DNA of 64,000 bases, from NCBI GenBank assembly GCA_019897865.1, contig GCA_019897865.1_4532.1. The stretch is one strand, 5' to 3'. The DNA comes from a phage. Position numbers and translations under genes: made by a program. The notes below the pieces were generated by a model. It saw only the letters and a program-made list of their open reading frames with translations, had not been told where the DNA came from and ran no database searches. Shown here piece by piece: positions 9,701 through 29,590 of this stretch; the stretch's first letter is position 1, and every line of letters starts with the position of its first letter.

Positions 9701-9736
9701 AAGAAAAGGGAACCTTTGCGGGTTCCCTTTTTTATT
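9701..9736. terminator. Bidirectional rho-independent terminator between convergent operons
   Basis: GGGAACC-TTTGCG-GGTTCCC hairpin flanked by A-run upstream and TTTTTTATT downstream; separates + strand SSB from the - strand tail-fiber operon. Confidence 0.65.
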
Positions 9737-12410
9737 AGTCGTAATATTTCAAACCTGTAATGAACTTCGATCCCCAATCCGCACTTGCGGCGGTGAACGT
9801 CAACATCCAAGTTGTAGCTGTACCAGTGAAGACCTCTCGTTGCACAGTACCATCAGTGTGGTAAATGTCCACGCCAGTATGTCCATTCTTAGGAATAGTG
9901 AAGGTAACAGCACTGGTAGTGTCTCGTGCATAAGAACAAACAAATGGTGTCCCCGCCCAAACTGGATTTGTCATATCACCCATCTCAAGCTGTGGAACCC
10001 AAGCAATAAGACCTGCCGTACCATCTCCTGCGAAAGTGTCTGATCCACTTGCATTCAAAGCTATAATCTCATAGGTTATAGATGCTTGTTTGGCAACTGT
10101 CACTTTGTGTAGAATTACACGATACCAACCATTCCCCATATCGATTATGTTTGCATCTGCACCTGTAAATGTTCCAGCTACAAGATCATAAGTCCCTTCG
10201 TTAATCTCATCTCCTGAAGTCAATTTGAGTTTCACTTTAGTGATCCCGTCTGGCTTCAAGAATACGGATGCCGCCCAGTGCTTACCTGCTGTAATATCAG
10301 AAGCTGTATTCACTGCTGATAAAATATGTTGTCCTGAAGTTGTAGAAGGTGTTAACTTGTAAGTGTTAGCCGTAGTTCCAACCGGAGAGTTGATTGTTGA
10401 TGCTGTGACTGTCAAGTTCGTCTTCAACCACGGGGAAGCTGTTGTCAAGTTATTGTTGATAAAGATATGTGTACGGTTGGCTGCTACAACACGTCTACCT
10501 TGTGGAGTTGTACCAACATATTCTAAAGGTGCTACGGGAGCAGAACTCTCTGTAGGTACAAGGATATCTCCAGAAGCCCTGGCATAACGGTTACTCCTAT
10601 TGACCTTTACATCCGTTGGAATAGTTTCTTGCGTCAAATCATAGTCCATCACAATCACCACAGCATTCACTGCGAGATAAGAACTATCTTCGGCAGTTAC
10701 CACACCTTGATAAGTTGCTCTACAACCGATACGACAATCCCCATCAGCAACCGCTGTAATAACGCCTGTAACGGGGTCAACTGTTGCTACCGTAGGGTCA
10801 TTAGAGAAATACTCAACAACCATACCAGGTAAGCTTGCTGCTCCTGTTGGTGTTATTTCTGCTACCATTGTTTGTGTTGTTCCTACATCCATCGCAGATA
10901 AGCTAGGGGTGTAAACGCTCAATGTTGAAGCATATCCTCCAGAGGTATCTGATAAAGTTGTTCCTTCAGCGTTTAAGGCTGTCATACCTGCATCAAAACC
11001 ACCTTCTGCATGGAAAGTCATTAAACCAGTAGATGATATTGTCATGTTTGCAGGGGCAGAAGAAGTGTATTTAATATTGAAAAGTTTACCTCCTTCTGGT
11101 CTAACAGAATGTGTCAACTGTTTAGTTCCACCTACAATACAAATTCCTAAAGAATCTGTAGTTAAGCCAGTTGCCAGAATATCGCCCGTAATCACGGAGC
11201 TTGCTATTGGTGTGAATTTATTATAGTTTAGACCACTATTGAACAGATACGAGGCTTTCCCATCTTTCCAAATACCGGAATAATACATATCTCCATTATA
11301 AACGAAAAAGGTTCCTTGATAACCTAATTGGTTAGTAACATCCATATTCAGCGTATGAACGCTTGTGAGCTTGTTTATATCCCAAGAACCCACTCCTTCA
11401 GGTTTAACTGGTTTTCCCACTTGGAGTGGATCTCCGCTCGCAGAATCATACCCCAAACCTAAGTTTGCAGTGTAGTTCTTACCAATAGCCCACAAGGAAT
11501 TATTGATCCCAACGAAAAAAGAGTGGCGGCTTGGTGGAAACTTCCATGTTGAGAAACCTGCTGCAAAGGTATCCAGTTTAGTGTAGGTTGTTTCTGTATT
11601 AGATCTAACATATAAGTAGTTTACTGTACCCGTGCCACCGGAGGTATCTCCTACAACTATTGTCTGGGAAACTGTATTGATGTAATCTTTGACATACACT
11701 GTTTCAGTAGCGGATATCTTGGCATTGACAAAAGCTGTTGTTGTGTTATTATTACCTGCTAAACCTTTACTAGCTCCACAAACACGCAAGGTTCCCACAT
11801 TGTTGACATAAGAACATTGGTTGTAACCTGCATCAAAAGCAACTGCTGCACTTGTTATCTGACGAGGAGTAGAAACTTCGTTAGTAGTACTTGCACCTAA
11901 ACTACCTACTGTGTTTTGACCTGATCCATAAAGAACACCACTATTCATTAACCAGAGAGTATTGTTATATCCTCCCTTAACCTCTTTAAGATTAGCTAAA
12001 GAGATAGTCCCTGTTATTACAGATGGAAAGCTGGTCCAAGTAGTTACACATGCGTCCGTACCACCTGCTGCTATAGATCCTACCAATCCTGCTGTCAATC
12101 CTGAATATTGCCATCCTCCACTGTTAGTTTTAATAACAAAACAACGATCTGCGGTAAACACATCCGCTACTACAGTAGAAGCTAAGTGGAAATTATTGAA
12201 TCGTGCACTACGAGTTCCATCTGCAATCTCACCAAAAAGGTTTGCGCCTTGAGTAAACAATCTACCATCATTAAGCAAAATTGCTAAACTGCTATTAGAA
12301 TTACCAGCATTATCTGGGTAATCTAAAGTGATTACTTTTTTAACAATACCTGCTGGCAGAGGAACGACACCAGTGCTGGTCATAATAGTAAATATTGGAA
12401 TTGGAAACAT
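9735..12410 (-). CDS. Tail fiber protein with bacterial Ig-like (Big_2-type) domain
   Basis: 891 aa, Gly/Thr/Ser/Asn-rich; segment DPTVATVDPVTGVITAVADGDCRIG... resembles Big_2; last gene of the - strand structural operon. Confidence 0.65.
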   Translation of the reverse strand: MFPIPIFTIMTSTGVVPLPAGIVKKVITLDYPDNAGNSNSSLAILLNDGRLFTQGANLFGEIADGTRSARFNNFHLASTVVADVFTADRCFVIKTNSGGWQYSGLTAGLVGSIAAGGTDACVTTWTSFPSVITGTISLANLKEVKGGYNNTLWLMNSGVLYGSGQNTVGSLGASTTNEVSTPRQITSAAVAFDAGYNQCSYVNNVGTLRVCGASKGLAGNNNTTTAFVNAKISATETVYVKDYINTVSQTIVVGDTSGGTGTVNYLYVRSNTETTYTKLDTFAAGFSTWKFPPSRHSFFVGINNSLWAIGKNYTANLGLGYDSASGDPLQVGKPVKPEGVGSWDINKLTSVHTLNMDVTNQLGYQGTFFVYNGDMYYSGIWKDGKASYLFNSGLNYNKFTPIASSVITGDILATGLTTDSLGICIVGGTKQLTHSVRPEGGKLFNIKYTSSAPANMTISSTGLMTFHAEGGFDAGMTALNAEGTTLSDTSGGYASTLSVYTPSLSAMDVGTTQTMVAEITPTGAASLPGMVVEYFSNDPTVATVDPVTGVITAVADGDCRIGCRATYQGVVTAEDSSYLAVNAVVIVMDYDLTQETIPTDVKVNRSNRYARASGDILVPTESSAPVAPLEYVGTTPQGRRVVAANRTHIFINNNLTTASPWLKTNLTVTASTINSPVGTTANTYKLTPSTTSGQHILSAVNTASDITAGKHWAASVFLKPDGITKVKLKLTSGDEINEGTYDLVAGTFTGADANIIDMGNGWYRVILHKVTVAKQASITYEIIALNASGSDTFAGDGTAGLIAWVPQLEMGDMTNPVWAGTPFVCSYARDTTSAVTFTIPKNGHTGVDIYHTDGTVQREVFTGTATTWMLTFTAASADWGSKFITGLKYYD

Positions 12411-12451: not shown

Positions 12452-14476
12452 TTATCGTGTTACAACAACCATGTCCACGATATCACCCACACCAGGATAC
12501 GTTAATTGCAAAATTGTTACTGCGTTAGCAGTAGTTGCTATTTCTGTATCATTTAGTGCTCCATAAGACGCATCTAGTGTAACCGTGTGTCCCGTTGTAT
12601 CTTGAATCAAATAAATCATTGCTGAAAACGCTTTAGGTTTTGTAGAGCCAGTGACACCAGGCCATGCTCCAACTGTCAGAGCGTCAGTTACTGTAACAAC
12701 ATACATATTGGAAGTTCCAGAAGGAGTCCAAGATGCTCCAGAGTTGGCAGTAGTTGTTTCAAGTTCCATGAAACCTGCTGTAACTCTAGTTGGTGTTATA
12801 GCTTCCGTAGGATCTGATCCGGATATTTCGATCCAATTTCCATCAGACCTACCATACGTCAAGCCGTCTTGAGGGGCTTCTGGTATACTAGGAAGAGTGC
12901 CTATAAGCGTCCACGTAGAAGAATCTGTTTTCTTAAACACTGCTCCAGTGGTAGTATTGAAGGCGTAATCATTGATAACACCGTCTCCTGCGACTGGATT
13001 AGTTGTTGCTACAAACCACTGTGCGCCGTCCTTACCGTTGGTCCCATCAGTACCGTTGGTTCCGTTTGTTCCAGGATCACCCTTATCTCCTTTATCCCCT
13101 TTTTCACCTTTGTCGCCTTTAATACTTCCCATGTCAACAAAAGATGCGGAATTGGTGTCTTGATCGTAGGTATAGATGTAAAGATTACTAGTGTCTTCAG
13201 TTAAATAGGCATCACCGTAGTTATTATAAACAGGGAGAGCTTCACTGTTCGGAACATGACCTTTAGCTGTAATTGATGTTCCTCCAAGACTGCCAACATT
13301 CATCCATTCCGTAGCATCTTGAACCCAAACATACAAATCATTATTAATTTTATATGCATCACCTACTTCTCCAGTAGGAGGAAGTTCAGCTTCGCTGTTC
13401 AGAACCCCGATAATCTCTAAACCTGATCCTGTTGCACCCACTGGTCCTTGTGGACCTAGTTCACCTTGTGGACCTCGCTCTCCTTGATCACCCTTGTCTC
13501 CTTTTGGACCTTTAAGTGAGGCAATAAAATCTACTTCTGTCCCTTCATTACCAGCATCCAGCCAACTTTGATATGCAGATTTCCCTTCATCTCCATCTGT
13601 TCCATCTAGACCGTCTTTTCCTGCCTCGCCTTGTGGACCTTGAGGACCAACAATATTACCCATGTTGACCCAAGCTGTCCCATTAGAGACATAAAGATTA
13701 CCATTGATAGAATAAGCTTGGCTTACGTTTTCAGAGTTAGGTTGTGGTAAGTTACTTGTAGAAGGCAAATCTCCACGATAATCAAAACCGTTGGCGTTAA
13801 CACCAGGTGCTCCCTGTGGCCCTGTAGGACCAACATCGCCTTTATCACCTTTTATAGAGGTAAGGAAATCATAAACAGATCCTGTATTACCATCTGCCAA
13901 CCATACCTCGTAAGCTGATTTACCTTCTGGCCCAAGAGAAGAAATAAGTTTCCAAACAGAACCATCCCAAGCGTAGATTACATCACCTACGATATAACCA
14001 TCCCCTGCAACGTTACCTGTGGATGGTAGTTCACTAGTGCTTGCTAATGATCCTTTAATATTAAGTTGAGCACCAGTATCCCCTTTCAAAGAGGCAAGCC
14101 ACTGTGCTTCTGTTCCAACAAAACCATTATCAAGTGCGATCTGATAAGCCGATTTACCAGCTTCAGGTATTGTTTCCGACAGATCATCAATCTGTTGCTG
14201 CATTGCCGTAAACTTGGCATTGATAATTGCTATATCATCAGCGGTCCCAACACTTTGCCATGCAAGGGAAGAAATACCACCTGTGGTGGCTGGCGTAGAG
14301 TTTGCTGGAACCACTTTAGGAAAAGTTCCTTTCCATTGGTAATAATTCCCTTCTGCTGCTAACAGCAAAACTTCACGGGAATTACGTAATGTAAAACCTG
14401 CCTCAAAGCTGCGACGTTTTCGATAAGTAGCTTCTACCAGATCGGCTATCGCACTATTAGGTCTTGTTAAATTCAT
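12452..14476 (-). CDS. Tail fiber protein with collagen-like G-X-Y triple-helix repeats
   Basis: 674 aa with several G-X-Y runs (GPQGPQGEAGKDGLDGTDG; KGPKGDKGDQGERGPQGELGPQGPVG; KGDKGEKGDKGDKGDPGTNGTNGTDG); N-terminal motif W.G.FPK...STP..TGG shared with two tailspikes. Confidence 0.75.
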   Translation of the reverse strand: MNLTRPNSAIADLVEATYRKRRSFEAGFTLRNSREVLLLAAEGNYYQWKGTFPKVVPANSTPATTGGISSLAWQSVGTADDIAIINAKFTAMQQQIDDLSETIPEAGKSAYQIALDNGFVGTEAQWLASLKGDTGAQLNIKGSLASTSELPSTGNVAGDGYIVGDVIYAWDGSVWKLISSLGPEGKSAYEVWLADGNTGSVYDFLTSIKGDKGDVGPTGPQGAPGVNANGFDYRGDLPSTSNLPQPNSENVSQAYSINGNLYVSNGTAWVNMGNIVGPQGPQGEAGKDGLDGTDGDEGKSAYQSWLDAGNEGTEVDFIASLKGPKGDKGDQGERGPQGELGPQGPVGATGSGLEIIGVLNSEAELPPTGEVGDAYKINNDLYVWVQDATEWMNVGSLGGTSITAKGHVPNSEALPVYNNYGDAYLTEDTSNLYIYTYDQDTNSASFVDMGSIKGDKGEKGDKGDKGDPGTNGTNGTDGTNGKDGAQWFVATTNPVAGDGVINDYAFNTTTGAVFKKTDSSTWTLIGTLPSIPEAPQDGLTYGRSDGNWIEISGSDPTEAITPTRVTAGFMELETTTANSGASWTPSGTSNMYVVTVTDALTVGAWPGVTGSTKPKAFSAMIYLIQDTTGHTVTLDASYGALNDTEIATTANAVTILQLTYPGVGDIVDMVVVTR

Positions 14477-14538: not shown

Positions 14539-17500
14539 TTAGGTTGTTGGCACATCTACTACTGGCGTTGGGCGAATAACCGCAGTATTACCTACAGAAA
14601 CATTACTGGAATCATTAGGTATGGTTTTAATTCTAACTCCAGCACTTGTAGGCGTTACAATTGGATCTGCAATGTCTATTTTAACTGGGTTAGTCCACGT
14701 ATCATTATCTTGATAAGGTGCACGAGTAATAACTGTGTCCAAATCTGCTCCACCTACGCCAGCACCAGGAATACGGATACGTGTCCCTGCTGACAGAGGG
14801 TAATGATACAACCAAGAAGCATTTGTTGCTGTCCCGTTAGGAGTCAAGTTCTGTGTCAGGAAGGTATCTCCTGCCTGTGTAGCTCGAATACCGAAAGCTG
14901 GGATATCTGGAATATATGCCCCACTTGTTGTTACAAGGAAGAACGTATTATCCGCTTTGACTATCATATCACCTTTGTCAAACTCTTTCCCTGTTGGGAA
15001 ATGCATTCCATCAATGTTTCGACTAGGATTAGGCTCTAAGTAATAAACTTTGCCCGTTGTCCCTACAATAGCTCCAATACCACCTGCGATATTGGTATAC
15101 ATATTAGCTTCAACATTACAGTTGACACGATGAATATCCGAGTAACGGCAACGGCTCCACTGTGGACGACCAGTAACCATCGTCTTGCCATCTGGGTAAC
15201 AGTTTACGTTAACCATTTCAAGAACAGATTTTTCTCTACGGAAGAATCCATCATAAAATGTTCCTGGACCAGATTCAGGTTGACCAACACAATCGAAGAT
15301 ATTACAGGTGATGTTAGACATTGAAAGCCAAGAAGCTATACCGAACAACTGCAATGCAGCGCAACGAATATTTTCAAAGCTAACTCTGTTTTCATAACCT
15401 GGCCCAGCGGAAACTCCCGCAAAAACACGCCCAGTTTTGGTGTGAATGTTACGAACAGAATAGTTAAAACATGGGTTTGAAGGTCTACCCTGTGCCGGAA
15501 CTACCGGATTACCCTCTTCGTCCAGAACTGCGTTAGTTCCCCACTCCAAATAAATCATACGGATATTACTTGCAAGTGTGCTACCGTCTGTTTTAGGCTC
15601 TCCATAAACACCGTCAATCGTAAAATCTTTACTTCCATACATTACAACTGCGCCAGTTGCCAAACCTGTCCCAACAGATACGGTTTGATCTGGATCGCCA
15701 TGAATGTTTTCGATAGAAATATTACGACCAACTTCTACGTGGACAATCTGACGGCAACGTTTTGCAAAAACGTTACGAATTGTAATATTCTTGCAATATT
15801 GATCATCAGGGATTCCGTAACCATATGGTCCTTTACCAGCTACACCGATACCGATACCCCAGTTGGACAGAGGAATAGGAGCGTTAGTCCCATCGATATT
15901 AGACAGGTAAATATTCTCAATCACACAACCATCATCATAATGTTTATTGATGACATTCAGTTCTATCGCATCACCTTGCATGTCCATGAAGGTAAGGTTA
16001 CGGAAGACACCGCGTGTTACTGGTTCTCCTGTCCCTTGTTGAAGGATGCCATATAACCCGTTTTTAAAAGTACAATTATCAATTTCAAAAGTACCTGATA
16101 TTGGGTTGCCTTGGAATACCAAGCTACCAACTTGACCTGCGCGAGGAGCACCGTCCCACAAACAATCGAACATGCGCACAGCACCACCCCAATACATAAC
16201 ACGAGAGTTACGGAAAGTTGTGCCTTCTACTGTAGCATTCTGCACACGATAGTCGCGTTGACCACGGAACACACCACCACGCAAAGTGATACCTTGAATA
16301 TCAAAAGAGCTTGTCGTGAAAGTCATATCGCAACCGTAAGCATCGAGAATCTTACTTTTCGAAGCTTTTGCTGCTAACAGTGCCGCCTGGAAAGCTGCTT
16401 CTGGTGTGGTATAGGTAGTTGTATTGTTAGCAAATTCTGACAAGTAGACAACATCGAATAAATCGTTGTATGTTCCACCACGAGGGGTTAACAGTCCTTC
16501 CGTATTAGTTAGAACCCATGCGTTTGGACCTAATCCACCGCTTGTCTCTAACGTGTCAGAGGCCAAAATACTTTTTGGTAAACTTCCAGCCCAACGATAA
16601 CGACCAGCACCACGTCCAATCGTCTGATTTTTAGCTGTCAGAGTTACATTATTACCAAAGCTTGTAGGCAAATGAACAAACTGTCCACGTTCAACAGCTA
16701 ATGCAGAAAGATCTACAGATCCGCCAGAATAAGTCATTACTCCAGAAACAGACAAAGATGTTAAAGTCCCTGTGATGTTAGGAGGCAATGTGTAGGAAGA
16801 TTGTGCTACTGGATCATACAGAGCTTTAATCCCTGTTAATGATTGACCCGCTGTTGCGTAAGCTACTTCATCATCCAACAAACCGTATTTACGAGCAATA
16901 GTTTGTAAAGGTACTTTATCCATGCTTTCTGTCAGTTCTTCAGTTTTTGTTTCTAAACTGACAAGACGGTTCTCTAGATTAGGATCTGTATCTGCTGAAG
17001 CTACGATTTTACCAATATAAGCGAAAAGCTTGTTTGGCAGTCCTGTTGCAGGATCGTGTCCCAAAGGTTCAGATAAGATGATCTTACTATCTTCTATACG
17101 GAAAGCTTCCCCCAGAACCTGAATAACACCATTGATCGTAACAATAGCACTATCAAAGATGTAAGGAGGACTGATTACTGTTTCATAACCAGTTGCACCA
17201 GAATATACCCAAGGTGTGACTTCTGTTGCCAATTGTTCTGTCTTCAATCCCCACAATACCCAGTTGTTATCTCCTACTGGAGTACCTTGCATAGGGATTG
17301 GGTTTACCAATGTAGCATTAGGAGCATAATAATAACCGCTCAATACCCCATTCTGAAAATAACGTAGTTGGTTAAAAACTGTTTCGTTTGTGCCTTGCGC
17401 CCAATCCAATGGGCTTTTAAAGAAAAAGTTGTCAACAAGGGCTTTTCTCAGGGTTGGTATCAACCCTGATTCTGTTTCAATACTCTCTGTAGCACTTCCA

Positions 17501-17592
17501 TTAATAACATCATGGAGTTGGTTAGATGAGAAAATAACCAGGTCTACGCCCTGTTCGAGAGACGTTGCTGGATATGTTGGGAATGTTGCCAT
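14539..17592 (-). CDS. Tailspike protein (right-handed parallel beta-helix, putative polysaccharide depolymerase)
   Basis: 1017 aa; repetitive beta-helix-like segments (NCTFKNGLYGIL..., NLTFMDMQGDAIEL...); shares YRWAGSLPK...GG...NAWV motif with 22273..24543 and 12452..14476. Confidence 0.7.
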   Translation of the reverse strand: MATFPTYPATSLEQGVDLVIFSSNQLHDVINGSATESIETESGLIPTLRKALVDNFFFKSPLDWAQGTNETVFNQLRYFQNGVLSGYYYAPNATLVNPIPMQGTPVGDNNWVLWGLKTEQLATEVTPWVYSGATGYETVISPPYIFDSAIVTINGVIQVLGEAFRIEDSKIILSEPLGHDPATGLPNKLFAYIGKIVASADTDPNLENRLVSLETKTEELTESMDKVPLQTIARKYGLLDDEVAYATAGQSLTGIKALYDPVAQSSYTLPPNITGTLTSLSVSGVMTYSGGSVDLSALAVERGQFVHLPTSFGNNVTLTAKNQTIGRGAGRYRWAGSLPKSILASDTLETSGGLGPNAWVLTNTEGLLTPRGGTYNDLFDVVYLSEFANNTTTYTTPEAAFQAALLAAKASKSKILDAYGCDMTFTTSSFDIQGITLRGGVFRGQRDYRVQNATVEGTTFRNSRVMYWGGAVRMFDCLWDGAPRAGQVGSLVFQGNPISGTFEIDNCTFKNGLYGILQQGTGEPVTRGVFRNLTFMDMQGDAIELNVINKHYDDGCVIENIYLSNIDGTNAPIPLSNWGIGIGVAGKGPYGYGIPDDQYCKNITIRNVFAKRCRQIVHVEVGRNISIENIHGDPDQTVSVGTGLATGAVVMYGSKDFTIDGVYGEPKTDGSTLASNIRMIYLEWGTNAVLDEEGNPVVPAQGRPSNPCFNYSVRNIHTKTGRVFAGVSAGPGYENRVSFENIRCAALQLFGIASWLSMSNITCNIFDCVGQPESGPGTFYDGFFRREKSVLEMVNVNCYPDGKTMVTGRPQWSRCRYSDIHRVNCNVEANMYTNIAGGIGAIVGTTGKVYYLEPNPSRNIDGMHFPTGKEFDKGDMIVKADNTFFLVTTSGAYIPDIPAFGIRATQAGDTFLTQNLTPNGTATNASWLYHYPLSAGTRIRIPGAGVGGADLDTVITRAPYQDNDTWTNPVKIDIADPIVTPTSAGVRIKTIPNDSSNVSVGNTAVIRPTPVVDVPTT

Positions 17593-21677: not shown

Positions 21678-21919
21678 TAGTCATCCTCTTTGGTAGATTG
21701 TGATCTGCCCCAGCGTAAATCAATAAGATTTTTCATGAGGCGAGAAGGAGTTATCATGAAAACAAAAGCCCAACCCATCCATTCAGGAATTTCTTTTTCT
21801 ATTCCTAAAAAGATAAACATGCCTGTCATGGTTAGCATTCCCAGTGCGTTCCACACTTTAGTAGAACTGATTTTGTTGTTTGGATAAGTACAAAACATTC
21901 CGATTAAAAACTTTCTCAT
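21677..21919 (-). CDS. Small membrane protein (2 predicted TM helices)
   Basis: 80 aa with two hydrophobic stretches; holin-like topology but located in the tail module. Confidence 0.35.
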   Translation of the reverse strand: MRKFLIGMFCTYPNNKISSTKVWNALGMLTMTGMFIFLGIEKEIPEWMGWAFVFMITPSRLMKNLIDLRWGRSQSTKEDD

Positions 21920-22227
21920 GGTGCGTTCTCATTACTTTTTAAATCACGATATACAGCTAATTCCCCAAGGTCTACAGAACCCGCTGAATGCACAAGTACA
22001 GCAGCAGTACTAAGGCTTATAGCAGTAACCCCAGAACCAAGGTTAGCTGGTAAGGAGTAAGCACGCTGTGACACTTTGTCATAAATGACTTTGTAACCAC
22101 CTAAGTCTACACCTACAGCAAAGTAGACTACTTCATTCTGTTTAACACCAAACTTACGAGCAATGGCTTGTTTATTGGTAAGAATACCAGTGGAGCCTTT
22201 ACCACCTTGACTAAACATTTCGTTCAT
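21916..22227 (-). CDS. Small protein homologous to an internal module of the 1017-aa tailspike
   Basis: 103 aa; ARKFGVKQNEVVYFAVGV...SLPANLGSGVTAIS...SAGSVDLGELAVYRD aligns with ARKYGLLDDEVAYATAGQ...TLPPNITGTLTSLS...SGGSVDLSALAVERG of 14539..17592. Confidence 0.45.
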   Translation of the reverse strand: MNEMFSQGGKGSTGILTNKQAIARKFGVKQNEVVYFAVGVDLGGYKVIYDKVSQRAYSLPANLGSGVTAISLSTAAVLVHSAGSVDLGELAVYRDLKSNENAP

Positions 22228-22272
22228 ATGTACCTCAAATTATTTTACCCCCCTCCTTCGGGGGGTTTTTCA

Positions 22273-24543
22273 TTATCTGACTACGAATTTACCAAGGCTA
22301 ATATCGTTTATCAGAGTTGCAACGATGTTTGCCAGTTGGGTGGTTGTTAACGTGTTCACATCACCACCACGCAACTGTCCAGCGTTGGTGAACGGGAATT
22401 GTTGCGGGGTTGCGCTATTGGCAAACTGGTTGTTAGCCTCATAACGTTTTGTTGGTACAGGGTTGTACCCAATACTGCCTGTGGTTGTGTCAGGAGCCAC
22501 GCAGTTCGTAATATTCACTATAGCGGCAGAACCACTACCATTTGTATATATTGGCCTGTTAACCGTTCCGAATGGTTGCACAGCTACCAGTCTGTTAACA
22601 ATAACACTCTGTGAGGCTAGCGCCTGTAAATAAGATTCTGCGCTCCCGTTGCACCCCCTCAAGTTCACATTATCAACATCTATGTGGCGGCAGTTAATGA
22701 TGACGATATAATGCCCATTTTCTGTGTTAGGGTAAGCGCCTACTATGCGAACATTTTTTAATGTTAAATCCGTGGTTGGAACCGCAGCAGGCCCACCGTT
22801 GAAAACAAACCCTTTTGCACCATTTGCAAGTGCGTGTATCGTAATGCCGTCAAACTCGATGTCGGCAAGATTAGTCGTGGTATTGGCTGAGTTTGCCAAA
22901 AAATAAACAGCCTCAGCAGAGCAACCTGATATCAAGAAGTTAGAAAAACGCATCCTTGTGTTTTCTACCGGATAGAAGCGGCATAACAAACCCTGCGAGC
23001 AGTTACGAATAACAACGTTATCGTAGGATACGTCACTAGCTCCTTCAATTGCGACACCTGCGTTCGAACTTTCTACATATAGTCCAGTAACTACTCCATT
23101 ACGGAAATTCCCTCGAAGACCGTGGCTTTCACAGTTTTTGATTGTAACGGCGTTTATGTTAACTCTTGTGATAGCAGTGCCATCACCATAACCGTTCACA
23201 AGGTCGTCTGACTGAATACGCAAACCGTTACCACCAGAGGTATTAATGCTCACATCGTTAATCATAAGATTAAGCGTACGGTTTGGGCGACGTGATGAGA
23301 AGAACAAGGATGAGGCCCAAGTGTTTCTGCAACGGATATGATGGACGTGCGCCTCTGTGGGGTCGTTAACAATAATTGCCATGCCTTGACGATTGCTGCC
23401 GTCCGGCTGTTGGATTTTCCCACGTCCACAATCGTGTGAATACAGACTGTCAGCCAACGCCCAGCGACCATAATCCATTGTTACGTTACTGTTCCACGCA
23501 CCTTGTAATTCACACCCTGAAAGCTCAAGCGTGCCAGTGGATTGCATAGCTAGCCCAACCCCAGGGTCAAATGACGCATCCTGTCGGTAGAAATCGAACA
23601 GGAAGTTGCCAACAATGCGGATGTCATATGGCGTATAGTCATATTCCTGGTTTGTTTCGTTCCAGGTTCGTGGTGATCTCAACCAGAACTGACGTGAATC
23701 AACGGTTACTTTTGGCAGCAATGGCTTGAGTCGGATGTCTCCCTGAATAATGAAGATTCCTTCAACATTCACAGGAGAATAACCAATGTAGATATTACCA
23801 GCCTTTGGCAACAAACGAGTAAGCTGTGCATCATTCTGGGCAATCTTCCATCCAGTAACTACTTCGTTAAAAAATGATGCCGGGAATAGCTCGTATGTCT
23901 CATTAATTACAGTTTGATCAAAACTGGTCACAGTCACCGATGAAGTAAGTGCAGAATCTAGCATCATCAGTTTGCCATTCACCCTAATAAACATTACTCC
24001 GGACGGGATAACATCACCGACAGACAACGAACGATTGTTCTCTGTTGGGAAGCAGGAACCACCGTAAAAACCTGATGATACGTTGGTAGAAAAATCACTG
24101 TATTTCACCCAGGCATTTGACGATACTCCGCCAGTACTATCCGGAGTAGAATTATCAGAAATAGTTTTTGGGAAAGAGCCTGCCCAGGTGTAACACTGAC
24201 CCGCTGCGATATGCCAAACCGCATCCTCTTTACTGTTTACTGTAGCGCCTTCTTCAAAGCTACCATTGACAAGGGTTAACCCTGCCTCAGCAAGACTACG
24301 ACGCCACTGTTCACGATCATTAAGAAGATTGTTATTCAACTCTTCCTGAACAGTATTACCATTTGAGGATTGTATTAAATCTGCTCCATCTGTATCTTTC
24401 AACTGGGTGGCTAAAACCACCCCAATGTCAGTAAGAAAGTTGGAAACTGTGCTTTTAACAGTTTTATCAGGTTGATCTAAAACCAGGTAATCTGAACCAT
24501 TAACTTTTGATGTTTCGGGTAAATTAGTAATTGTAGTTGACAT
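22273..24543 (-). CDS. Tailspike protein (parallel beta-helix, pectate-lyase-like depolymerase)
   Basis: 756 aa; beta-helix repeats (NCESHGLRGNFRNGVVTGLYVESSNAGVAIEG..., NVVIRNCSQGL...); conserved anchor motif CYTWAGSFPKTISDNSTPDSTGG. Confidence 0.7.
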   Translation of the reverse strand: MSTTITNLPETSKVNGSDYLVLDQPDKTVKSTVSNFLTDIGVVLATQLKDTDGADLIQSSNGNTVQEELNNNLLNDREQWRRSLAEAGLTLVNGSFEEGATVNSKEDAVWHIAAGQCYTWAGSFPKTISDNSTPDSTGGVSSNAWVKYSDFSTNVSSGFYGGSCFPTENNRSLSVGDVIPSGVMFIRVNGKLMMLDSALTSSVTVTSFDQTVINETYELFPASFFNEVVTGWKIAQNDAQLTRLLPKAGNIYIGYSPVNVEGIFIIQGDIRLKPLLPKVTVDSRQFWLRSPRTWNETNQEYDYTPYDIRIVGNFLFDFYRQDASFDPGVGLAMQSTGTLELSGCELQGAWNSNVTMDYGRWALADSLYSHDCGRGKIQQPDGSNRQGMAIIVNDPTEAHVHHIRCRNTWASSLFFSSRRPNRTLNLMINDVSINTSGGNGLRIQSDDLVNGYGDGTAITRVNINAVTIKNCESHGLRGNFRNGVVTGLYVESSNAGVAIEGASDVSYDNVVIRNCSQGLLCRFYPVENTRMRFSNFLISGCSAEAVYFLANSANTTTNLADIEFDGITIHALANGAKGFVFNGGPAAVPTTDLTLKNVRIVGAYPNTENGHYIVIINCRHIDVDNVNLRGCNGSAESYLQALASQSVIVNRLVAVQPFGTVNRPIYTNGSGSAAIVNITNCVAPDTTTGSIGYNPVPTKRYEANNQFANSATPQQFPFTNAGQLRGGDVNTLTTTQLANIVATLINDISLGKFVVR

Positions 24544-24551: not shown

Positions 24552-26705
24552 CTATATATAAAATTTTTGTGTTGTTACTAAATCTTCTCCAGATTTAGTG
24601 GCTAATGTAATTCCACTTATGGTGGCAATCTCAACATTTACCTGTTTAAGAGTGATATCCTGTAAATAAACGTTCAAAGGCACGTTACCCATATAGAAAA
24701 CTTGGGATTGAGAATTAACTACCGTGATAGAATCGTGCATTATTTGAGGATAGGCCCATATATATTGTGTAAGTCCGTCAAACTTATTGGCGTTCAACAC
24801 TATGTTACCTATAATCATTTTCCAAAGATACGTGCGGTAGTTTGATTCAGGATCAAAGCCATACAAAGGTGCAAGAGTAGCATCTGGAACAAAACCTGCA
24901 AGATAATGTATCTTATCATAACTAAAACCTAATTGTTCATTAGGTATTGTGATAGCGTCAAAAGATTTTTCCATCTTACCTTCCAACAACCAGTCATAAC
25001 ATTCTGAACAATAAAAGTCGAAGTTTTCTGGGATATAATAATCTTTAGGGAAGTTAACAAACTCCATCATACCGTTACCTAAAATGGATGGCACAAATGG
25101 TAATAATGTAACTTTAGCTCCAGGATAGGCTAATCTAGTATCTGTTGCAAACTTTGCAACTCTTAATCCTAGTTTACGAGACAAAAATGCATAGTATTCG
25201 TCAAACGGTGTTCCTGTTTTATAATTATCTATTGTTCCTACATCTTGTGCAAATAAACCTGTTTCTGTGTTGAATGCTAGTTTAGTAGTGTAATCGTATA
25301 TACAAGGCATTTTACTCGCTGTATTATACCACCACCAAGGCTCACCAATTTGAATGACAACTGGAATATTATTAGCTTGCGAAATAGATGCTATTTTATT
25401 AATAACATTTTGCAAATATTTCATACCTTCGTCAATAGTTGGAGACAACACGTAACTAGGAGGCTTATACCCTGTTGCTGCAAGAGCATCGTTCCAATCA
25501 TGCTGGACCCATTCAACAGGACAAACTGTGCTCATCAACTCAAAACTTAAAGAGTTCATTATTGTGTAACCCTTCTCGTTCGCTATAGAATGGAAACTAT
25601 TTAGCCAAGCTTCTGTAGCTGGATTCAGGAAGACAGATCTATTTAAAGCCCAAGATGTTCCGTTCCATGAGAACTCATAATAGTGAGACATTCCATTGTA
25701 ATGGTTAATCATTCCACGATAACCTAGCGCATATGTATTATAAATAACTCTCTCTGGAGTCAGATTATACATATCGTCATAAGATGTGCACATGCGAATA
25801 TCATGTTCAGGCTGGACAAGGTTACTGACTTTCATCATACTATAACCAGAAGTAGGTTCAAGAAGAGTGAAAGTAAACCAAGCCTCTTGACTATCAATAG
25901 GCACAATCTCTTCTATTTCTTCATACCTTGCTGTAATCAAAGAGAAGAAAATATTATCTACAGCACTCATGTCCAAAGGAATATCATTATTAGGACCAGA
26001 GAAGATATTACCAAAATCTAATTTGATTGTAGCTGTTTTACCATCTTCTGAAATATCTGAAGCATAAAATCCTAAACTAACATAGTGGACACTTTTATCC
26101 AAGAGAGTTACAGTCAAAGTTGGCACCAAAGGTTCTTCTTTAAAACCTGGCATGTTTTGACTAATTTCCATTTTAAACCAAAGTTTCTCTGAACTTAAAT
26201 CTGTGTGGGGTAAATACCCAACACCTTTATGGTCATATTTGTCAACTGTGCTCCAGATAACCCCTGCCAAACCTGCTGTTGTTCTGTTTACAAATCTTGC
26301 AGTAAAAGAGTCTCCATGAGATACAATAGAACAACTTTCCGTTGCTTGAGAATCTATTGTCCAATACATAGGAGAGAACATTTTAACGTCTTTTGTAGTC
26401 CAAGTTATTGGAGTAGTATTTTCTTGGATCGTAGTTATAATACAGTTGATGGTCGTTTCAACCATCATGTTATTTTGACTAATCCCTGAAACTTGGAGGG
26501 AGAAGTTAAGATCTATTGAGTTCTTTGGTCGTTCAAATACTTCAACCACAATGGTAGCAGAATCAGCATCATCAGGGAACACAAGTGTTCCCGATTTTGC
26601 AATATAATCTCTACCAGCGACTGCTGTTCCGTCAACAGTCGTGTAGTTAAATGAACTCGCATTTACTCTTTTGTCTCGCGTGACAGTAAATATAGCTTGT
26701 TTCAT
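24552..26705 (-). CDS. Tailspike/tail fiber protein with N-terminal Calx-beta-like domain
   Basis: 717 aa; N-terminus TVTRDKRVNASSFNYTTVDGTAVAGRDYIAKSGTLVFPDDADSATIVVEV fits the Calx-beta pattern. Confidence 0.6.
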   Translation of the reverse strand: MKQAIFTVTRDKRVNASSFNYTTVDGTAVAGRDYIAKSGTLVFPDDADSATIVVEVFERPKNSIDLNFSLQVSGISQNNMMVETTINCIITTIQENTTPITWTTKDVKMFSPMYWTIDSQATESCSIVSHGDSFTARFVNRTTAGLAGVIWSTVDKYDHKGVGYLPHTDLSSEKLWFKMEISQNMPGFKEEPLVPTLTVTLLDKSVHYVSLGFYASDISEDGKTATIKLDFGNIFSGPNNDIPLDMSAVDNIFFSLITARYEEIEEIVPIDSQEAWFTFTLLEPTSGYSMMKVSNLVQPEHDIRMCTSYDDMYNLTPERVIYNTYALGYRGMINHYNGMSHYYEFSWNGTSWALNRSVFLNPATEAWLNSFHSIANEKGYTIMNSLSFELMSTVCPVEWVQHDWNDALAATGYKPPSYVLSPTIDEGMKYLQNVINKIASISQANNIPVVIQIGEPWWWYNTASKMPCIYDYTTKLAFNTETGLFAQDVGTIDNYKTGTPFDEYYAFLSRKLGLRVAKFATDTRLAYPGAKVTLLPFVPSILGNGMMEFVNFPKDYYIPENFDFYCSECYDWLLEGKMEKSFDAITIPNEQLGFSYDKIHYLAGFVPDATLAPLYGFDPESNYRTYLWKMIIGNIVLNANKFDGLTQYIWAYPQIMHDSITVVNSQSQVFYMGNVPLNVYLQDITLKQVNVEIATISGITLATKSGEDLVTTQKFYI

Positions 26706-26713: not shown

Positions 26714-29590
26714 TTACTCGGTAACGTCCACACTAATGTTTGCCATTGTCAAAACAGTAAGTGCAGGAATATTGCTCGAATCCAAAACAGGTAATGCATT
26801 TTGGGGATTAAGTTTTTTGTATAAAGCATACAACCCAAAACCACGTAACAACTCTCCAGCGTGGAAGCCAAAGAAGACTCCGTTATCACTATCTGGTCTA
26901 GGAGCGGCACTCCAACAACCATTCATGACGTGATTAGGACCAAGAACAATATAGTTTTCCTGAATAAGTTCAAAACAGCGGTCTGCTACTATTTTAATGT
27001 TAGGAATTTCTGAATCATATCCAGCCATCCCCATTATAGCACATCCCGCCATAAAGAGCGCAGACATGTGACTTGTAAAGTCATCTACAGGCGCAGCCAC
27101 TTCTCCATTGGGATAAAATATTGTTGGTGTTCTTCCTTCGTTGTTATCTTGGAACCATTTCAGATAGTTGATCCAGTTTTTACAAACTGTTAAAAGTTTT
27201 TCAGGAACTTCTGCTCCTCGTTGTTTCAGTTCGTATACTGTATGACACGCACAGAAGAATGCTCGTGCTTCATAACCATCCCAAGCTTTATCGTTCCAAT
27301 GATACATTGTGAACTCATTCTTGTTTCCGTATTTATGAGCATCCCAACGATCCCAAACATAAGCTTGTGCCATTGGTCCAGGCATCACAGGGGCAAACTT
27401 ATTATAAAACCACATTTGTGAATCATATAAAAAGTCTATACTGTTGTTCATACGAACCCAATCAATATCTCTCCCTTTAAAACAATATAAGGATGGGTAT
27501 TGATAACCTGGGTAAGGAATACCACGCCAACCGTCATATAAGGCTGTGTTAGGATCACTGATATTGGAAAATGGAATGATTCCTGGAGTATAATTCAAAC
27601 TGTTAAGTTTGTAGTCCAGTATTGTACAATCTCCAAGTTTTGCTGTATAAGGATTTTCAGATGAAACTGTAACCCTGAAATACATTGTGTAATCATCACC
27701 AGTGGCTGAAGAATACAAAGATGGGATATCGTTAACGCAATAAAAATCGATTGCCCCTGTCAAGCCATTTGCAGGTTCAGAATCCAATGCAATATTGATC
27801 TGATCAACAGCAGTCAGGTTTATTGACGAAGGTTTTGCCTCTGTGTCTTCGTGATTAGGTTGCCAAGTACTTAATTTGAAATCGGCAGGACTTAAAGCTT
27901 TAGTAACCCATGCAGAATTTGTTTTTTCTAACATGGCCCACCATCTCCAACCTGCAGAATCCGTAATAGTGATGTTAAAATCATCTGCGTATGAACGATA
28001 CGTAATAGATTTTAAATTGGCTGTTTTAGTTGGTGTTAACCAAAACCCAACAGTAAAACCACCATCTGAATCCATATTAGCAGAAACTATCTGATCACTA
28101 TTTGTCCCAGCAATACCAGTTGCATATTTATATTGTATCACAGTATTGCTTCCCCAGTCAACAATGATTCTAGGTTCAGCAATAATATATACACCACCTC
28201 CAGGAGGTTCGGTGCGCATAAAACTGGATAAAGGTATATCCATCTTAGTCATATTAGCTGCACCAAGAGGTAAGCCACAACGATATGTCACTGTGTCTGT
28301 TTCACTCTTAGTCTTGCTTAATTCTAACTCTGGACGGAAAAGAACACCTTCCCCTGCATCATCTACACCTTGAAACTCAATACGCAGTTTTGAATTCTGA
28401 TCCACTCTGAACCAAACTGCCTGTTGTTCTAGAGTTGTTTGTGCTGCAACATCTTGGCGAATTACTGTGTATCCTAATTCATCACGAGAATATTTAGGTA
28501 TTGCTGTAGATGGGTATGAGTAATCATACGAGATACCATCTGTAAAAGGAATTATTGCTGTCGTAGATCTACGGAAGAATTTATCAAACATATCGATGTT
28601 TGAGTAGTCTTGACACAACAATAAAGAAGATTGCCAGCAAAGCCAGTATTTTCTCTCTCCTGTGATCTGATACATCAAGTAGTTTGCATCACACCACCAC
28701 GTTTCAGCATCGGAAGCATTATCTTGATAACCTAACTCTACCGGAACGTTTACAGGACGGTTATGCCACATCTCATTACGCTTAAGCAGATATCCACCGT
28801 GTTCTACAGGGTTGCATGTAGCGTAGTTGAATTTATAATCACCGTTCACAGAAGCATTTTTAAGTTGCACTGTTCCATATTCTGCGAAGCTGTGACCTGT
28901 AGATAAAATGTTACCATCCCAATCAACTTTACGTCCTAGACGGTCTATAATCCATTCAACGTCCCACTGATCTCCATATTCTTTCCAGTTGGTTGAACCA
29001 TCTGGGTTAGTTGCATACACTGTTGCGTTAACAGAGTTCCAACCAAGATTACCATTGAAAGCAAACCAAGCTTTATCTAAGTATTCTCCCCAGTGTGGCG
29101 CACCTTTAGGAATAACAGTCCTTCCGTTAATCCAAGTCATCATGCTACCTTTGAACCCGCCGTGCGTAGGATATCCATCATCTGTGAGAGGGTAGTGTGC
29201 TAAACGTGGTTCTTTACCATTGATGATCCAGTTGGGACGATATTTAGCCGGAGGATCAGGAATAGGTTGGCCCCCGAAGAAGTGATCTATATAGGCTTGC
29301 CAATACTTCTCGGCAGATTCAAGATATTTTTTATCCCCTGTAGCCAAATATGCATAAGCAAAACCAGTGATAAGCACAGATTGACCTTCGGTAGTAGCGT
29401 CACCGTTTGGTTGCCCTTCCTGCGCTGTCCAGTTAATAAAGTGTCTGTTGTTCGCCAATACGTTTTGTGGGTTGATAATGTAGTGCTGAACCGTAGGATC
29501 TATAGTAAGCCCAGTATTTCTTTCCAGAAACTGAACCAACCCTTCAATCAACTGAAACGTGTTGTCAATATTGTGCTTAACTCTTGACAT
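26714..29590 (-). CDS. Large tailspike / receptor-binding protein (putative glycanase)
   Basis: 958 aa, aromatic-rich, positioned with the other tailspikes after the baseplate genes. Confidence 0.55.
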   Translation of the reverse strand: MSRVKHNIDNTFQLIEGLVQFLERNTGLTIDPTVQHYIINPQNVLANNRHFINWTAQEGQPNGDATTEGQSVLITGFAYAYLATGDKKYLESAEKYWQAYIDHFFGGQPIPDPPAKYRPNWIINGKEPRLAHYPLTDDGYPTHGGFKGSMMTWINGRTVIPKGAPHWGEYLDKAWFAFNGNLGWNSVNATVYATNPDGSTNWKEYGDQWDVEWIIDRLGRKVDWDGNILSTGHSFAEYGTVQLKNASVNGDYKFNYATCNPVEHGGYLLKRNEMWHNRPVNVPVELGYQDNASDAETWWCDANYLMYQITGERKYWLCWQSSLLLCQDYSNIDMFDKFFRRSTTAIIPFTDGISYDYSYPSTAIPKYSRDELGYTVIRQDVAAQTTLEQQAVWFRVDQNSKLRIEFQGVDDAGEGVLFRPELELSKTKSETDTVTYRCGLPLGAANMTKMDIPLSSFMRTEPPGGGVYIIAEPRIIVDWGSNTVIQYKYATGIAGTNSDQIVSANMDSDGGFTVGFWLTPTKTANLKSITYRSYADDFNITITDSAGWRWWAMLEKTNSAWVTKALSPADFKLSTWQPNHEDTEAKPSSINLTAVDQINIALDSEPANGLTGAIDFYCVNDIPSLYSSATGDDYTMYFRVTVSSENPYTAKLGDCTILDYKLNSLNYTPGIIPFSNISDPNTALYDGWRGIPYPGYQYPSLYCFKGRDIDWVRMNNSIDFLYDSQMWFYNKFAPVMPGPMAQAYVWDRWDAHKYGNKNEFTMYHWNDKAWDGYEARAFFCACHTVYELKQRGAEVPEKLLTVCKNWINYLKWFQDNNEGRTPTIFYPNGEVAAPVDDFTSHMSALFMAGCAIMGMAGYDSEIPNIKIVADRCFELIQENYIVLGPNHVMNGCWSAAPRPDSDNGVFFGFHAGELLRGFGLYALYKKLNPQNALPVLDSSNIPALTVLTMANISVDVTE

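Follow-up and report, generated by a model that had tools for sequence, protein, structure and literature searches.

The window analysed here, a 64,000-nucleotide stretch of phage DNA, carries seven large genes for putative tail fibres or tailspikes, and the question raised by this locus is whether they amount to an unusually large receptor-binding arsenal, held together by a common attachment or branching module and directed against several capsular or O-antigen types, as the original prediction had it. All seven ORFs were found at exactly the coordinates predicted, all on the minus strand (Table 1). The window is from a Phapecoctavirus (Stephanstirmvirinae), a phAPEC8-like myovirus. The 19.9 kb locus is ~97% identical at the nucleotide level, over 86–90% of its length, to TSP7_1, Ro121c4YLVW, phAPEC8 and others; 54 database records cover at least 80% of it and more than 50 deposited phages are ~97% identical to the window. 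Gene order was matched in five relatives (Ro121c4YLVW, phAPEC8, ZCKP1, EF1-1 and the phi92-like PaulScherrer) and runs from hub, spike, W-like protein, p157, p958, p717 and a variable slot through J, I, short fibre and chaperone to lipoprotein, colanidase, collagen fibre and the last large fibre gene.

The arsenal is not unusual in its size, as every Stephanstirmvirinae genome examined carries the identical locus, which has been described before. The same gene order is already present and annotated in phAPEC8 and phi92-like phages. The 'multivalent adsorption apparatus' of phi92-like phages has been in the literature since 2012 (Schwarzer et al. 2012 J Virol). The BASEL study (PMC8594841) attributes three co-expressed fibre sets and a glycan-hydrolase repertoire to this phage group, the Eryne genome announcement also deals with its fibre sets and glycan-hydrolase repertoire, and the Wecvirus paper lists fibre proteins of 958, 890/891, 353 and 157 aa, sizes which match p958, p891, p353 and p157, together with two others of 681 and 235 aa. 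The locus is thus the already known 'nanosized Swiss army knife' set, ordinary for phi92/phAPEC8-type E. coli phages, and the only newly shuffled part of it is one spike, p756. Homologies, folds, synteny, the pattern of conservation and recombination boundaries together make it very probable that the region serves a phAPEC8-like myovirus as its host-adsorption module, corresponding to the known multivalent apparatus of phi92-type phages; the multivalent character originally proposed for it is supported.

A P2-type J-I-H-G unit is present in order (PF04865, PF11041, the phrog_4465 fibre and PF02413), and the gene predicted to be P2 H-like is indeed a short tail fibre followed by a Caudo_TAP chaperone. 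The fibre genes had been placed as one block between the baseplate spike genes and this unit. One block of four large genes does lie between the spike and W-like genes and this unit, but three of the seven genes are located downstream of the unit. From the hub and spike genes through the last large fibre gene, the arrangement is that of phi92 and phAPEC8, with a colanidase homologous to phi92 gp150 and a short fibre equivalent to fiber III. In the cryo-EM study of phi92 (PMC13450770) the wedge is described, gp139, the positional counterpart of p208, is the sheath initiator, fiber III is gp147 and the fibre candidates include gp140, the equivalent of p157. The short fibre has been described as a homologue of Mu gpS and probable binder of the LPS core (PMC8594841). 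Assembly of several fibre sets on one virion has been shown by cryo-EM for phi92 alone (PMC13450770).

Table 1. Features of the adsorption module, listed by position in the window.
Feature	Coordinates	Strand	Domains and evidence
Terminator-like hairpin closing the module	9704..9731	-	phAPEC8 has a terminator annotated at the same place
p891, last module gene	9735..12410	-	RCC1-like beta-propeller, two Big_2 Ig-like domains, C-terminal domain like RcGTA head-spike fibre (6tb9_F3, E=3.8e-14)
Similar hairpins after p674 and p1017	12430-12449 and 14517-14529		
p674, collagen-like tail fibre	12452..14476	-	opens directly with TD2 (aa 12-77); PF18668 E=1.3e-19, Collagen E=3.3e-12
p1017, predicted colanic-acid-degrading tailspike	14539..17592	-	conserved anchor aa 1-~200, coiled coil, TD1 230-300, TD2 302-361, colanidase beta-helix 426-1000
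Small protein, lipoprotein by annotation in relatives	17596..17931	-	100% conserved in genus
gpG/gpU-type tail-fibre assembly chaperone	17941..18486	-	PF02413 Caudo_TAP E=5.3e-13
p353, short tail fibre (phi92 gp147 'fiber III' equivalent; Mu gpS / P2 gpH type)	18487..19548	-	phrog_4465 E=3.4e-108
gpI-position baseplate wedge protein	19558..20187	-	PF11041 DUF2612, 28.8 bits against a cut-off of 23.5
P2 gpJ-like baseplate wedge protein	20190..21677	-	PF04865 Baseplate_J E=3.1e-8; 99-100% conserved
p80, small protein annotated as membrane protein	21677..21919	-	89-100% identity in genus; ATGA overlap with p103 stop
p103, stand-alone TD1 (D1 head) ORF, part of exchanged cassette	21916..22227	-	matches aa 1-95 of many full-length spikes
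GC-rich, terminator-like stem-loop between p756 and p103	22247..22266	.	-18.7 kcal/mol, z=-3.6
p756, hypervariable tailspike	22273..24543	-	genus-specific N-terminus aa 1-~75, TD2 aa 92-149, right-handed beta-helix receptor-binding domain; PF18668 E=2.5e-16
p717, homologue of phage N4 gp64/gp65	24552..26705	-	Calx-beta + NCTSP_N + TIM barrel; PF23845 E=1.7e-79, PF23844 E=3.7e-16, PF03160 E=7.6e-11
p958, conserved (alpha/alpha)6 glycoside-hydrolase-fold protein with beta-sandwich inserts	26714..29590	-	
p157, small fibre-like protein (phi92 gp140 / 'TfpS3' equivalent)	29590..30063	-	phrog_9017 tail fiber E=2.7e-68; 99-100% conserved in genus
p208, W/gp25-like baseplate wedge or sheath initiator	30063..30689	-	phrog_120 baseplate wedge subunit E=6e-20
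Central baseplate spike (P2 gpV / phi92 type), upstream boundary of the module	30691..31425	-	Pfam spike N- and C-terminal (beta-helical trimerisation) domains, E=8.5e-32

The pattern of conservation does not fit with the proposal that the set as a whole is directed against several capsular or O-antigen types. Of the large proteins, six out of seven are 96–100% identical in most of the compared members of the genus, with p891 as a partial exception, and within-genus variation is confined to p756, p103 and partly p891, p756 being the sole hypervariable slot among the seven. The conserved proteins therefore probably target conserved glycans, for which colanic acid, the NGR/ECA-type glycan and the LPS core are the probable candidates by analogy with related phages. 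The collagen-like p674 is 99–100% conserved and its C-terminus matches the tail fibre 9cuy_g (E=4e-8), while p891 shows moderate variation (86% in ZCKP1, split in Ro121lw) and its match to the phi92-like phage is limited to aa 586–891 (63%). The domain labels first given to these proteins mostly stand, namely Ig-like for p891 (Big_2), collagen for p674, beta-helix for p1017 and p756 and Calx-beta for p717; the RCC1-like propeller of p891 had gone unmentioned.

The motif shared by three of the proteins reflects real homology rather than a coincidence of composition. By profile comparison it is the 'head' domain known as TD2/D2 in tailspikes of the CBA120 type, Pfam PF18668 (Tail_spike_N), with scores of 70.5 bits in p674, 37.6 in p1017 and 60.0 in p756, all above the Pfam gathering cut-off of 25. 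The three segments are 40–47% identical in pairs (E=9e-10, 1e-5 and 6e-3) and match the D2 range of solved tailspikes (4oj5, 5w6f, 5w6h, 4qnl, 8x8m and 9vvr). When an HMM of the three segments was run against 580 six-frame segments of the window no fourth copy was found, the next best hit having E=0.066.

Identification of the motif as TD2 bears directly on its proposed role as a common attachment or branching module, in which the spikes would form a branched complex of the CBA120/G7C type with the motif-bearing proteins docking on one another. The motif domain is part of the CBA120 D1-D2 'head', which takes part in XD3 docking, p674 begins at TD2 and its gene adjoins that of p1017, and aa 128–372 of p1017 align with aa 224–465 of G7C gp66, spanning XD3-D1-D2 (E=2e-15). 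There are also weak hints of a single gp10-like jellyroll at aa ~136–180 of p1017 (hhalign E=2.8e-4, probability 41%; 7y22_e adaptor E=0.003). However, in those CBA120 and G7C complexes that have been characterised it is the N-terminal face of TD1/D1, and not TD2, that docks onto the gp10-like XD3, and the XD-like signal alone is marginal (BLASTP against gp66 XD2, E=0.03). The locus shares TD1 and TD2 heads with CBA120 and G7C (4oj5, 5w6f, 5w6h, 4qnl), but is without clear gp10-like XD2/XD3 scaffold domains and carries instead the anchors of rV5/phi92-type myoviruses. None of the full-length spikes here has TD1 free at its N-terminus; TD1 is found only inside p1017 or as p103, which is without a receptor-binding domain. 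Moreover, the three TD2 proteins have three different, unrelated N-termini, and the phi92-like homologue of p1017 retains its anchor though it is without TD1-TD2. Docking through the motif is thus quite unlikely. TD2 appears rather to travel with receptor-binding cassettes and to mark the seam where recombination grafts them onto lineage-specific anchors, as suggested by one breakpoint against one relative and by domain boundaries across phage families: compared with its nearest relative, p756 diverges at aa ~121, within the TD2 motif beginning at aa 117.

The exchanged stretch has defined boundaries. Divergence from the nearest relative is limited to positions 22237–24182, and the p756 region has a GC content of 0.449 as compared to ~0.39 in the flanks. 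In phi92 and phAPEC8 the variable slot is filled by an endosialidase, whereas here it contains a beta-helix receptor-binding domain of the G7C gp66 type, with aa 75–756 being 74% identical to aa 382–1063 of podovirus G7C gp66. The domain is 71–72% identical to spikes of Ackermannviridae (MK-13 and fGh-Ecl02, third position of the spike array), and its nearest relatives are spikes of P22-like E. coli prophages (88–89% amino acid identity over 98% of the domain), whose anchor is the P22 head-binding domain PF09008, in contrast to the Phapecoctavirus N-terminus and TD2 of p756. The same receptor-binding domain sits on four different anchors in four phage groups. Among 5,426 complete E. coli genomes, 27 carry it at ~90% nucleotide identity. 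In the phage collection searched, no record covers at least 80% of p756 at more than ~75% identity. Homologues of p756 carry PF13229, and its AlphaFold2 model is a beta-helix (pLDDT 81) which matches, at a Foldseek probability of 1.0, CBA120 TSP3/1/4, the HK620 and Sf6 spikes, polygalacturonase and GH87.

Downstream of p756 the junction with p103 is laid out like that of G7C gp66 and gp63.1, with a stop codon, a GC hairpin, an RBS and, in G7C, ATGAACGAAATG; such a hairpin junction has been proposed as a recombination boundary in G7C-like phages. The 103-residue p103 is 86% identical to aa 1–94 (TD1) of G7C gp63.1 and is missing where the slot is empty or holds an endosialidase. It may be a non-functional scar, that is, the 5' remnant of a gp63.1-like spike gene that arrived together with a gp66-like cassette and lost the rest of its length once, in an ancestor. 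The order of the genes, gp66 followed by gp63.1, is as in G7C. When five Stephanstirmvirinae copies were compared, four had the same truncation tail, ...LAVYRDLKSNENAP, and the fifth, that of Ro121c4YLVW, had a slightly changed one, which argues for a single event. In addition, dN/dS is ~1 among ZCKP1, EF1-1 and Ro121c4YLVW, although from no more than a handful of substitutions. The ORF is nevertheless intact in both genera of the subfamily, with its own RBS and an ATGA overlap with the downstream gene, and dN/dS between divergent copies is 0.07–0.15 at dS ~1, a signal which may be inherited from full-length donors by recombination. The scar is therefore a tentative reading, to which we give somewhat less than an even chance. 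Unlikely, though worth stating, is a second possibility, in which a portable cassette (TD2, receptor-binding domain, hairpin, TD1), with p103 and the TD2 motif as its homology arms, recombines among four unrelated phage groups, N4-like podoviruses, Ackermannviridae, P22-like prophages and Stephanstirmvirinae myoviruses, with p103 possibly also expressed and occupying or regulating a TD1 docking site, e.g. the possible XD-like domain of the colanidase spike. If true, p103 would be a previously undescribed 'headless' docking subunit.

Along with p756, p1017 bears out the prediction of two beta-helix spikes of the depolymerase type. It matches the structure of the phi92 gp150 colanidase (PDB 6e0v) with E=1.4e-79, and glycan-degrading activity has been published for gp150. 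Its heads match CBA120 TSP1/3/4 and G7C gp63.1 with E=1e-26 to 1e-30. In Phapecoctavirus TD1-TD2 are located between the anchor and the beta-helix of the colanidase, unlike in the phi92-like homologue.

Two proteins thought to be fibres turned out to have enzyme-like folds. An (alpha/alpha)6 toroid was found in p958, resembling GH8, GH76 and GH105 at only 9–12% sequence identity and with invariant acidic residues (D64, E68, D294, E296, D336, E388, D750 and E913); this glycoside-hydrolase fold led us to reject p958 as a fibre. In p717, Calx-beta (aa 4–82) is followed by an N4 gp64/gp65-like TIM barrel (PF23844 59.3 bits and PF23845 267.8 bits, cut-off 27; PDB 9lc0_M gp64 E=4.4e-30 and, for the gp65 segment, 9lc0_I gp65 E=2e-12). 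N4 gp64 and gp65 are subunits of a non-contractile sheath (PDB 9lc0, 9yf4; PMC13434306), whereas p717 is one chain of 717 aa with an N-terminal Calx-beta in a myovirus with a contractile sheath, and it lacks the greater part of the ten domains of gp65, among them the plug-binding D9-D10. Since the phage is contractile-tailed and gp65 D9-D10 are lacking, an N4-type six-fold sheath around a podovirus tail tube, with plug gating by p717, is implausible. On its sequence p717 is filed as a homologue of the N4 sheath proteins and not as their functional equivalent. BASEL (PMC8594841) ties homology of the p717 type to ECA/NGR dependence in relatives.

The number of separate adhesins may be smaller than the number of genes. 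In a composite arrangement p958, p717, p756 and perhaps p157 would form one L-shaped 'fiber I' and p1017, p674 and p891 a second, giving an effective valency of ~3 with one strain-specific tip. Cryo-EM of phi92 resolves no more than three fibre types per wedge, and the tip of the L-shaped fiber I is the variable-slot protein (PMC13450770). Natural Rosetta-stone fusions join gpI to p958-like proteins and p958-like to p717-like (NCTSP/TIM) proteins, the genes outside the variable slot are near-invariant in the genus, and the conservation of p958 at 43–55% across very different hosts is atypical of a specificity determinant. On the other hand, the enzyme-type folds of p958, p717 and p1017 suggest more than scaffolding, the BASEL genetics (PMC8594841) indicate that relatives use a conserved glycan besides strain-specific ones, and phi92 fiber II has been matched to no candidate gene, the assignment of genes to density being incomplete (PMC13450770). 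We regard composite fibres as having just under an even chance; they refine the preferred reading of the locus as a multivalent adsorption module and do not contradict it. Probably p958 is a wedge-proximal scaffold or enzyme of a composite fibre, and although p958 and p717 are folded like enzymes, both could have a structural role only.

From these data we infer receptor identities, the placement of the proteins on one another and enzymatic activities as follows. A P2/Mu-type core of hub, iron-tipped spike, W-like initiator, J/I-like wedge, short tail fibre and chaperone would carry two blocks of glycan-directed accessory proteins. The first, encoded between the W-like and J-like genes, comprises p157, p958 (probably proximal to the wedge), p717 (probably on p958) and the variable slot with p756 and p103; the second, whose genes follow that of the chaperone, comprises the predicted colanic-acid depolymerase spike p1017, the collagen-like fibre p674 and the propeller/Ig protein p891. 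The enzymatic spikes would bind and process surface glycans, bringing the baseplate to the outer membrane, with p1017 acting on colanic acid as does phi92 gp150, p756 on a strain-specific O-antigen or capsule and, by analogy with the genetics of BASEL relatives, p717/p958 on a conserved glycan of the NGR/ECA type. Next, the short fibre p353 would bind the LPS core, and a rearrangement like that seen for phi92 would trigger contraction.

The locus as a whole adds nothing new, as multivalent recognition by phi92/phAPEC8-type phages is established and is used in discussions of phage therapy. Its p958 and p717 are candidates for the recognition of the conserved NGR/ECA-type glycan reported genetically for relatives. 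Strain specificity lies in one slot, bounded by the TD2 seam upstream and by the hairpin and the TD1 ORF downstream, and a single bounded specificity slot of this kind is a natural site for host-range engineering. The target O-type of p756 could be predicted by serotyping the lysogens that carry the P22-like prophages.

The 19.9-kb adsorption module (9735-29590) shares ~97% identity over 86-90% of its length with dozens of deposited Phapecoctavirus (Stephanstirmvirinae) phages, and its close relatives include phAPEC8, Ro121c4YLVW, TSP7_1 and ESCO13. Gene for gene, the same order is present in Ro121c4YLVW, phAPEC8, ZCKP1, EF1-1 and the phi92-like phage PaulScherrer. In the direction of transcription it runs from the tape measure, tube initiator, hub, spike and W-like protein through p157, p958, p717 (proteins are named by their length in amino acids) and the variable spike to the J-like and I-like proteins, the short fibre, a chaperone and a lipoprotein, and it ends with the colanidase, the collagen fibre and the last large fibre gene. 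The BASEL study (PMC8594841) labelled the counterparts of these proteins in PaulScherrer lateral tail fibre proteins, with domains of the glycosidase or deacetylase type, and among the Stephanstirmvirinae fibre proteins given in a 2025 paper are some of 958, 890/891, 353 and 157 aa, which are the sizes of p958, p891, p353 and p157 in the window. A 2026 cryo-EM study of phi92 (PMC13450770) resolved three fibre types per wedge, where endosialidase gp143, the occupant of the variable slot, was assigned to fiber I and the short fibre gp147 to fiber III, while no gene was given for fiber II. Since the same arrangement is found in five syntenic relatives and already in the literature, the receptor-binding arsenal, originally predicted to be unusually large, is the ordinary, published state of the phi92/phAPEC8-type group. 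The adsorption module is already known as a feature; new here are solely one further shuffled spike allele and a description of how its cassette is laid out (TD2, receptor-binding domain, hairpin, TD1).

All seven large ORFs of the original prediction are real and begin and end exactly where predicted, all on the minus strand, and the labels Ig-like (p891, where Big_2 domains are present), collagen (p674) and Calx-beta (p717) are correct. Matches to sigma-70 promoters are at background level (53 found versus 51.5 expected). The region 9670-9735 is a convergent transcription boundary, where the replication genes (plus strand) stop at 9670 and the adsorption module (minus strand) stops at 9735. 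A strong hairpin is located within it (9704-9731), and phAPEC8 carries an annotated terminator at the equivalent place.

Features of the adsorption module, with domain content from homology and fold searches
Feature	Position	Strand	Description
p891	9735-12410	minus	Big_2 Ig-like domains; N-terminal RCC1-like beta-propeller; C-terminus like the RcGTA head-spike fibre
p674	12452-14476	minus	11 residues, then TD2; collagen repeats
p1017	14539-17592	minus	~200-aa anchor, coiled coil, TD1 (aa 230-300), TD2 (aa 302-361), colanidase beta-helix
p353	18487-19548	minus	short fibre
p103	21916-22227	minus	103 aa, stand-alone TD1
Hairpin	22247-22266 (within 22228-22272, between p756 and p103)		GC-rich stem-loop, -18.7 kcal/mol, z=-3.6
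p756	22273-24543	minus	genus-specific ~75-aa N-terminus, TD2, beta-helix receptor-binding domain
p717	24552-26705	minus	N-terminal Calx-beta, NCTSP_N, TIM barrel
p958	26714-29590	minus	(alpha/alpha)6 glycoside-hydrolase-type fold

The motif Y/W-x-W-x-G-x-F/L-P-K ... S/T-G-G ... A-W is common to p674, p756 and p1017, and it reflects real homology, as all three proteins score above the gathering score of Pfam PF18668 (Tail_spike_N). They are pairwise 40-47% identical in this region and match the D2 domain (TD2) of solved tailspikes. An HMM built from the three segments recovered no fourth copy in the 64-kb window, which was searched as 580 six-frame segments. The motif had been read as consistent with a common attachment or branching module. 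In CBA120 TSP1-4 and in G7C gp66 and gp63.1, the head is made up of D1/TD1 and D2/TD2, and TD1 docks through its N-terminal face on XD3, a gp10-like domain in a scaffold spike. The motif corresponds to TD2, whereas docking in these complexes is by TD1, which argues against a role as the attachment module. The three TD2 proteins also differ in what precedes the domain, namely 11 residues in p674, a genus-specific stretch of ~75 aa in p756 and a 200-aa anchor with TD1 in p1017. Signals for a gp10-like XD domain in p1017 are weak (BLASTP E=0.03; hhalign probability 41%, E=2.8e-4; a faint match to an adaptor protein), and a homolog search with its N-terminus, which returned at least 19 distant proteins, defines an anchor family and does not prove an XD domain. 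Among the full-length proteins of the module, none has a free N-terminal TD1. Because the signals for a gp10-like XD domain are marginal and no full-length protein carries a free N-terminal TD1, a branched complex of the CBA120 type is not supported and seems unlikely.

Comparison with relatives suggests a different significance for TD2. The sole segment diverging from the nearest relative is 22237-24182, and its upstream breakpoint falls at about residue 121 of p756, within the motif, which starts at residue 117. Homology of the receptor-binding part across families begins at residues 67-77, just upstream of TD2. Judged by this one breakpoint against one relative and by the cross-family homology boundaries, TD2 marks a predicted recombination seam.

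The beta-helix predicted for p1017 is borne out by strong homology to the solved colanidase gp150 of phi92 (PDB 6e0v, E=1.4e-79). Its conserved anchor of ~200 aa is common to many spikes and fibres whose C-termini are unrelated. In the phi92-like ortholog (L004, 22504-24918) the anchor is 75% identical over residues 1-215 and leads directly into the beta-helix, whereas the Phapecoctavirus colanidase has a coiled coil and TD1-TD2 in between. Since the ortholog possesses the anchor without TD1-TD2, the domain order suggests that p1017 is a resident anchor onto which a complete TSP1-type spike has been grafted.

The variable slot, which separates p717 from the J-like gene, occurs in three states. 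It is empty in Ro121lw, holds an endosialidase in phAPEC8 (and likewise in phi92), and is occupied by a beta-helix spike followed by an ORF of 101-103 aa in the window, Ro121c4YLVW, EF1-1, ZCKP1 and PaulScherrer. The annotation of ZCKP1 has a shorter p80 ORF and an additional ORF of 52 aa. The beta-helix of the spike p756, likewise as predicted, is seen in an AlphaFold2 model (pLDDT 81) whose best Foldseek matches are the CBA120 TSP3/TSP1/TSP4, HK620 and Sf6 spikes, polygalacturonases and GH87. A p756 profile matched only N-terminal domains in the PDB, and therefore its receptor-binding family has no solved structure. This domain is 74% identical to residues 382-1063 of G7C gp66, 71-72% to the third-position spike in the arrays of Agtrevirus MK-13 and Kuttervirus fGh-Ecl02, and 88-89% to spikes of P22-like E. 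coli prophages, which bear a P22 head-binding domain. A search of 5,426 complete E. coli genomes also located it in 27 of them, at ~90% identity on the nucleotide level. The GC content of 0.449 at 22000-24000, against ~0.38-0.41 in the flanks, coincides with this imported domain. Literature on gp66 yielded no substrate for it. The p756 chimera is absent from all records of the searched phage collection; NCBI nevertheless already lists the exact p756 and p103 under the title 'hypothetical protein [Escherichia coli]' (EOQ8023335.1, EIB5655919.1). Both entries lie on a single 152,759-bp contig, a complete lytic-phage-sized genome within an E. coli isolate assembly and not a phage record.

The stand-alone TD1 protein p103 shares 86% identity with the N-terminal 94 residues of G7C gp63.1, and 81-86% with the N-termini of full-length spikes of the Ackermannviridae type. 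These spikes run on into TD2 at the point where the tail of p103 (...LAVYRDLKSNENAP) begins, and since the same tail is present in four of the five Stephanstirmvirinae copies compared (it is slightly altered in Ro121c4YLVW), p103 looks like the product of a single ancestral truncation. The phage LHE287 was considered as a relative with a full-length spike at the p103 position and was rejected; its neighbours form an Ackermannviridae-type array (a run of spike genes, then a VriC-like gene), and therefore it serves only as a donor-type TD1 sequence. p103 is present only where a beta-helix spike fills the slot. Its nucleotide identity to sister phages is ~80% as compared to 97-100% in the flanks, which places it within the exchanged cassette. 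The junction between p756 and p103 consists of a stop codon, the GC-rich hairpin, an RBS and ATGAACGAAATG, the same layout as between G7C gp66 and gp63.1, where the hairpin has been proposed to delimit module exchange. p103 may be a functional docking subunit, or else it may be a conserved recombination arm or scar. Codon alignment gives it a dN/dS of 0.07-0.15, a value confounded by recombination from full-length donors, from which the low ratio could have been inherited.

Among the seven proteins predicted to be fibres or tailspikes, p958 and p717 are neither by fold, although the ORFs themselves are sound. Sequence and profile searches with p958 gave no Pfam or PDB match (best PDB hit GH76, E=0.16), and it was resolved by fold search alone, from a confident model (pLDDT 86, pTM 0.81, 30-sequence alignment). 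Its relatives are proteins of ~940 aa with 43-55% identity in phages and prophages of Enterobacter, Pseudomonas, Stenotrophomonas and marine bacteria. Two kinds of natural fusion occur in different homologs (P0097 and P0089 are examples): in one, P2 gpI is joined to the N-terminus of a p958-like protein, and in the other, a p717-like NCTSP_N plus TIM barrel is joined to the C-terminus. These Rosetta-stone fusions suggest a physical chain from the wedge to p958 and on to p717. p717 aligns with two sheath subunits of phage N4, gp64 (E=4e-30) and gp65, and the BASEL study (PMC8594841) tied such homology to a requirement of these phages for a conserved glycan, which was interpreted initially as ECA and subsequently as NGR. 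Instead of seven independent binders, the seven genes probably give rise to about three composite fibre sets.

Within the genus, protein identity is 96-100% for every large gene except p756 beyond about residue 150 and, in part, p891; p103, adjoining p756, is at 85-88%. p891 ranks second in the module for variability: it shows 86% identity to its counterpart in ZCKP1, matches that of EF1-1 over residues 1-584 only and that of the phi92-like phage over the C-terminal 300 aa only (63%), and in Ro121lw it is divided between two ORFs. Its C-terminal domain is similar to Rcc01080, the head-spike fibre of RcGTA, and resemblance to a head spike has also been reported for phi92 gp140/gp151. The idea of a multivalent apparatus is supported; its proposed targeting of several capsular or O-antigen types is not, since just one slot (p756) appears strain-specific and the other large genes, p891 in part excepted, are near-invariant. 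Taken as a whole, the original interpretation is supported in part.

From the homologies, folds, synteny, conservation pattern and recombination boundaries, which are directly supported, we infer the following receptor and activity steps. The enzymatic spikes and enzyme-fold proteins would bind or process surface glycans, with p1017 acting on colanic acid, p756 on a strain-specific O-antigen or capsule, and p717 and p958 probably on a conserved glycan. These interactions would bring the baseplate to the outer membrane, where the short fibre p353 may bind the LPS core and, by its rearrangement, trigger contraction, a step proposed earlier for phi92 and, in the BASEL study (PMC8594841), for rV5-like phages.
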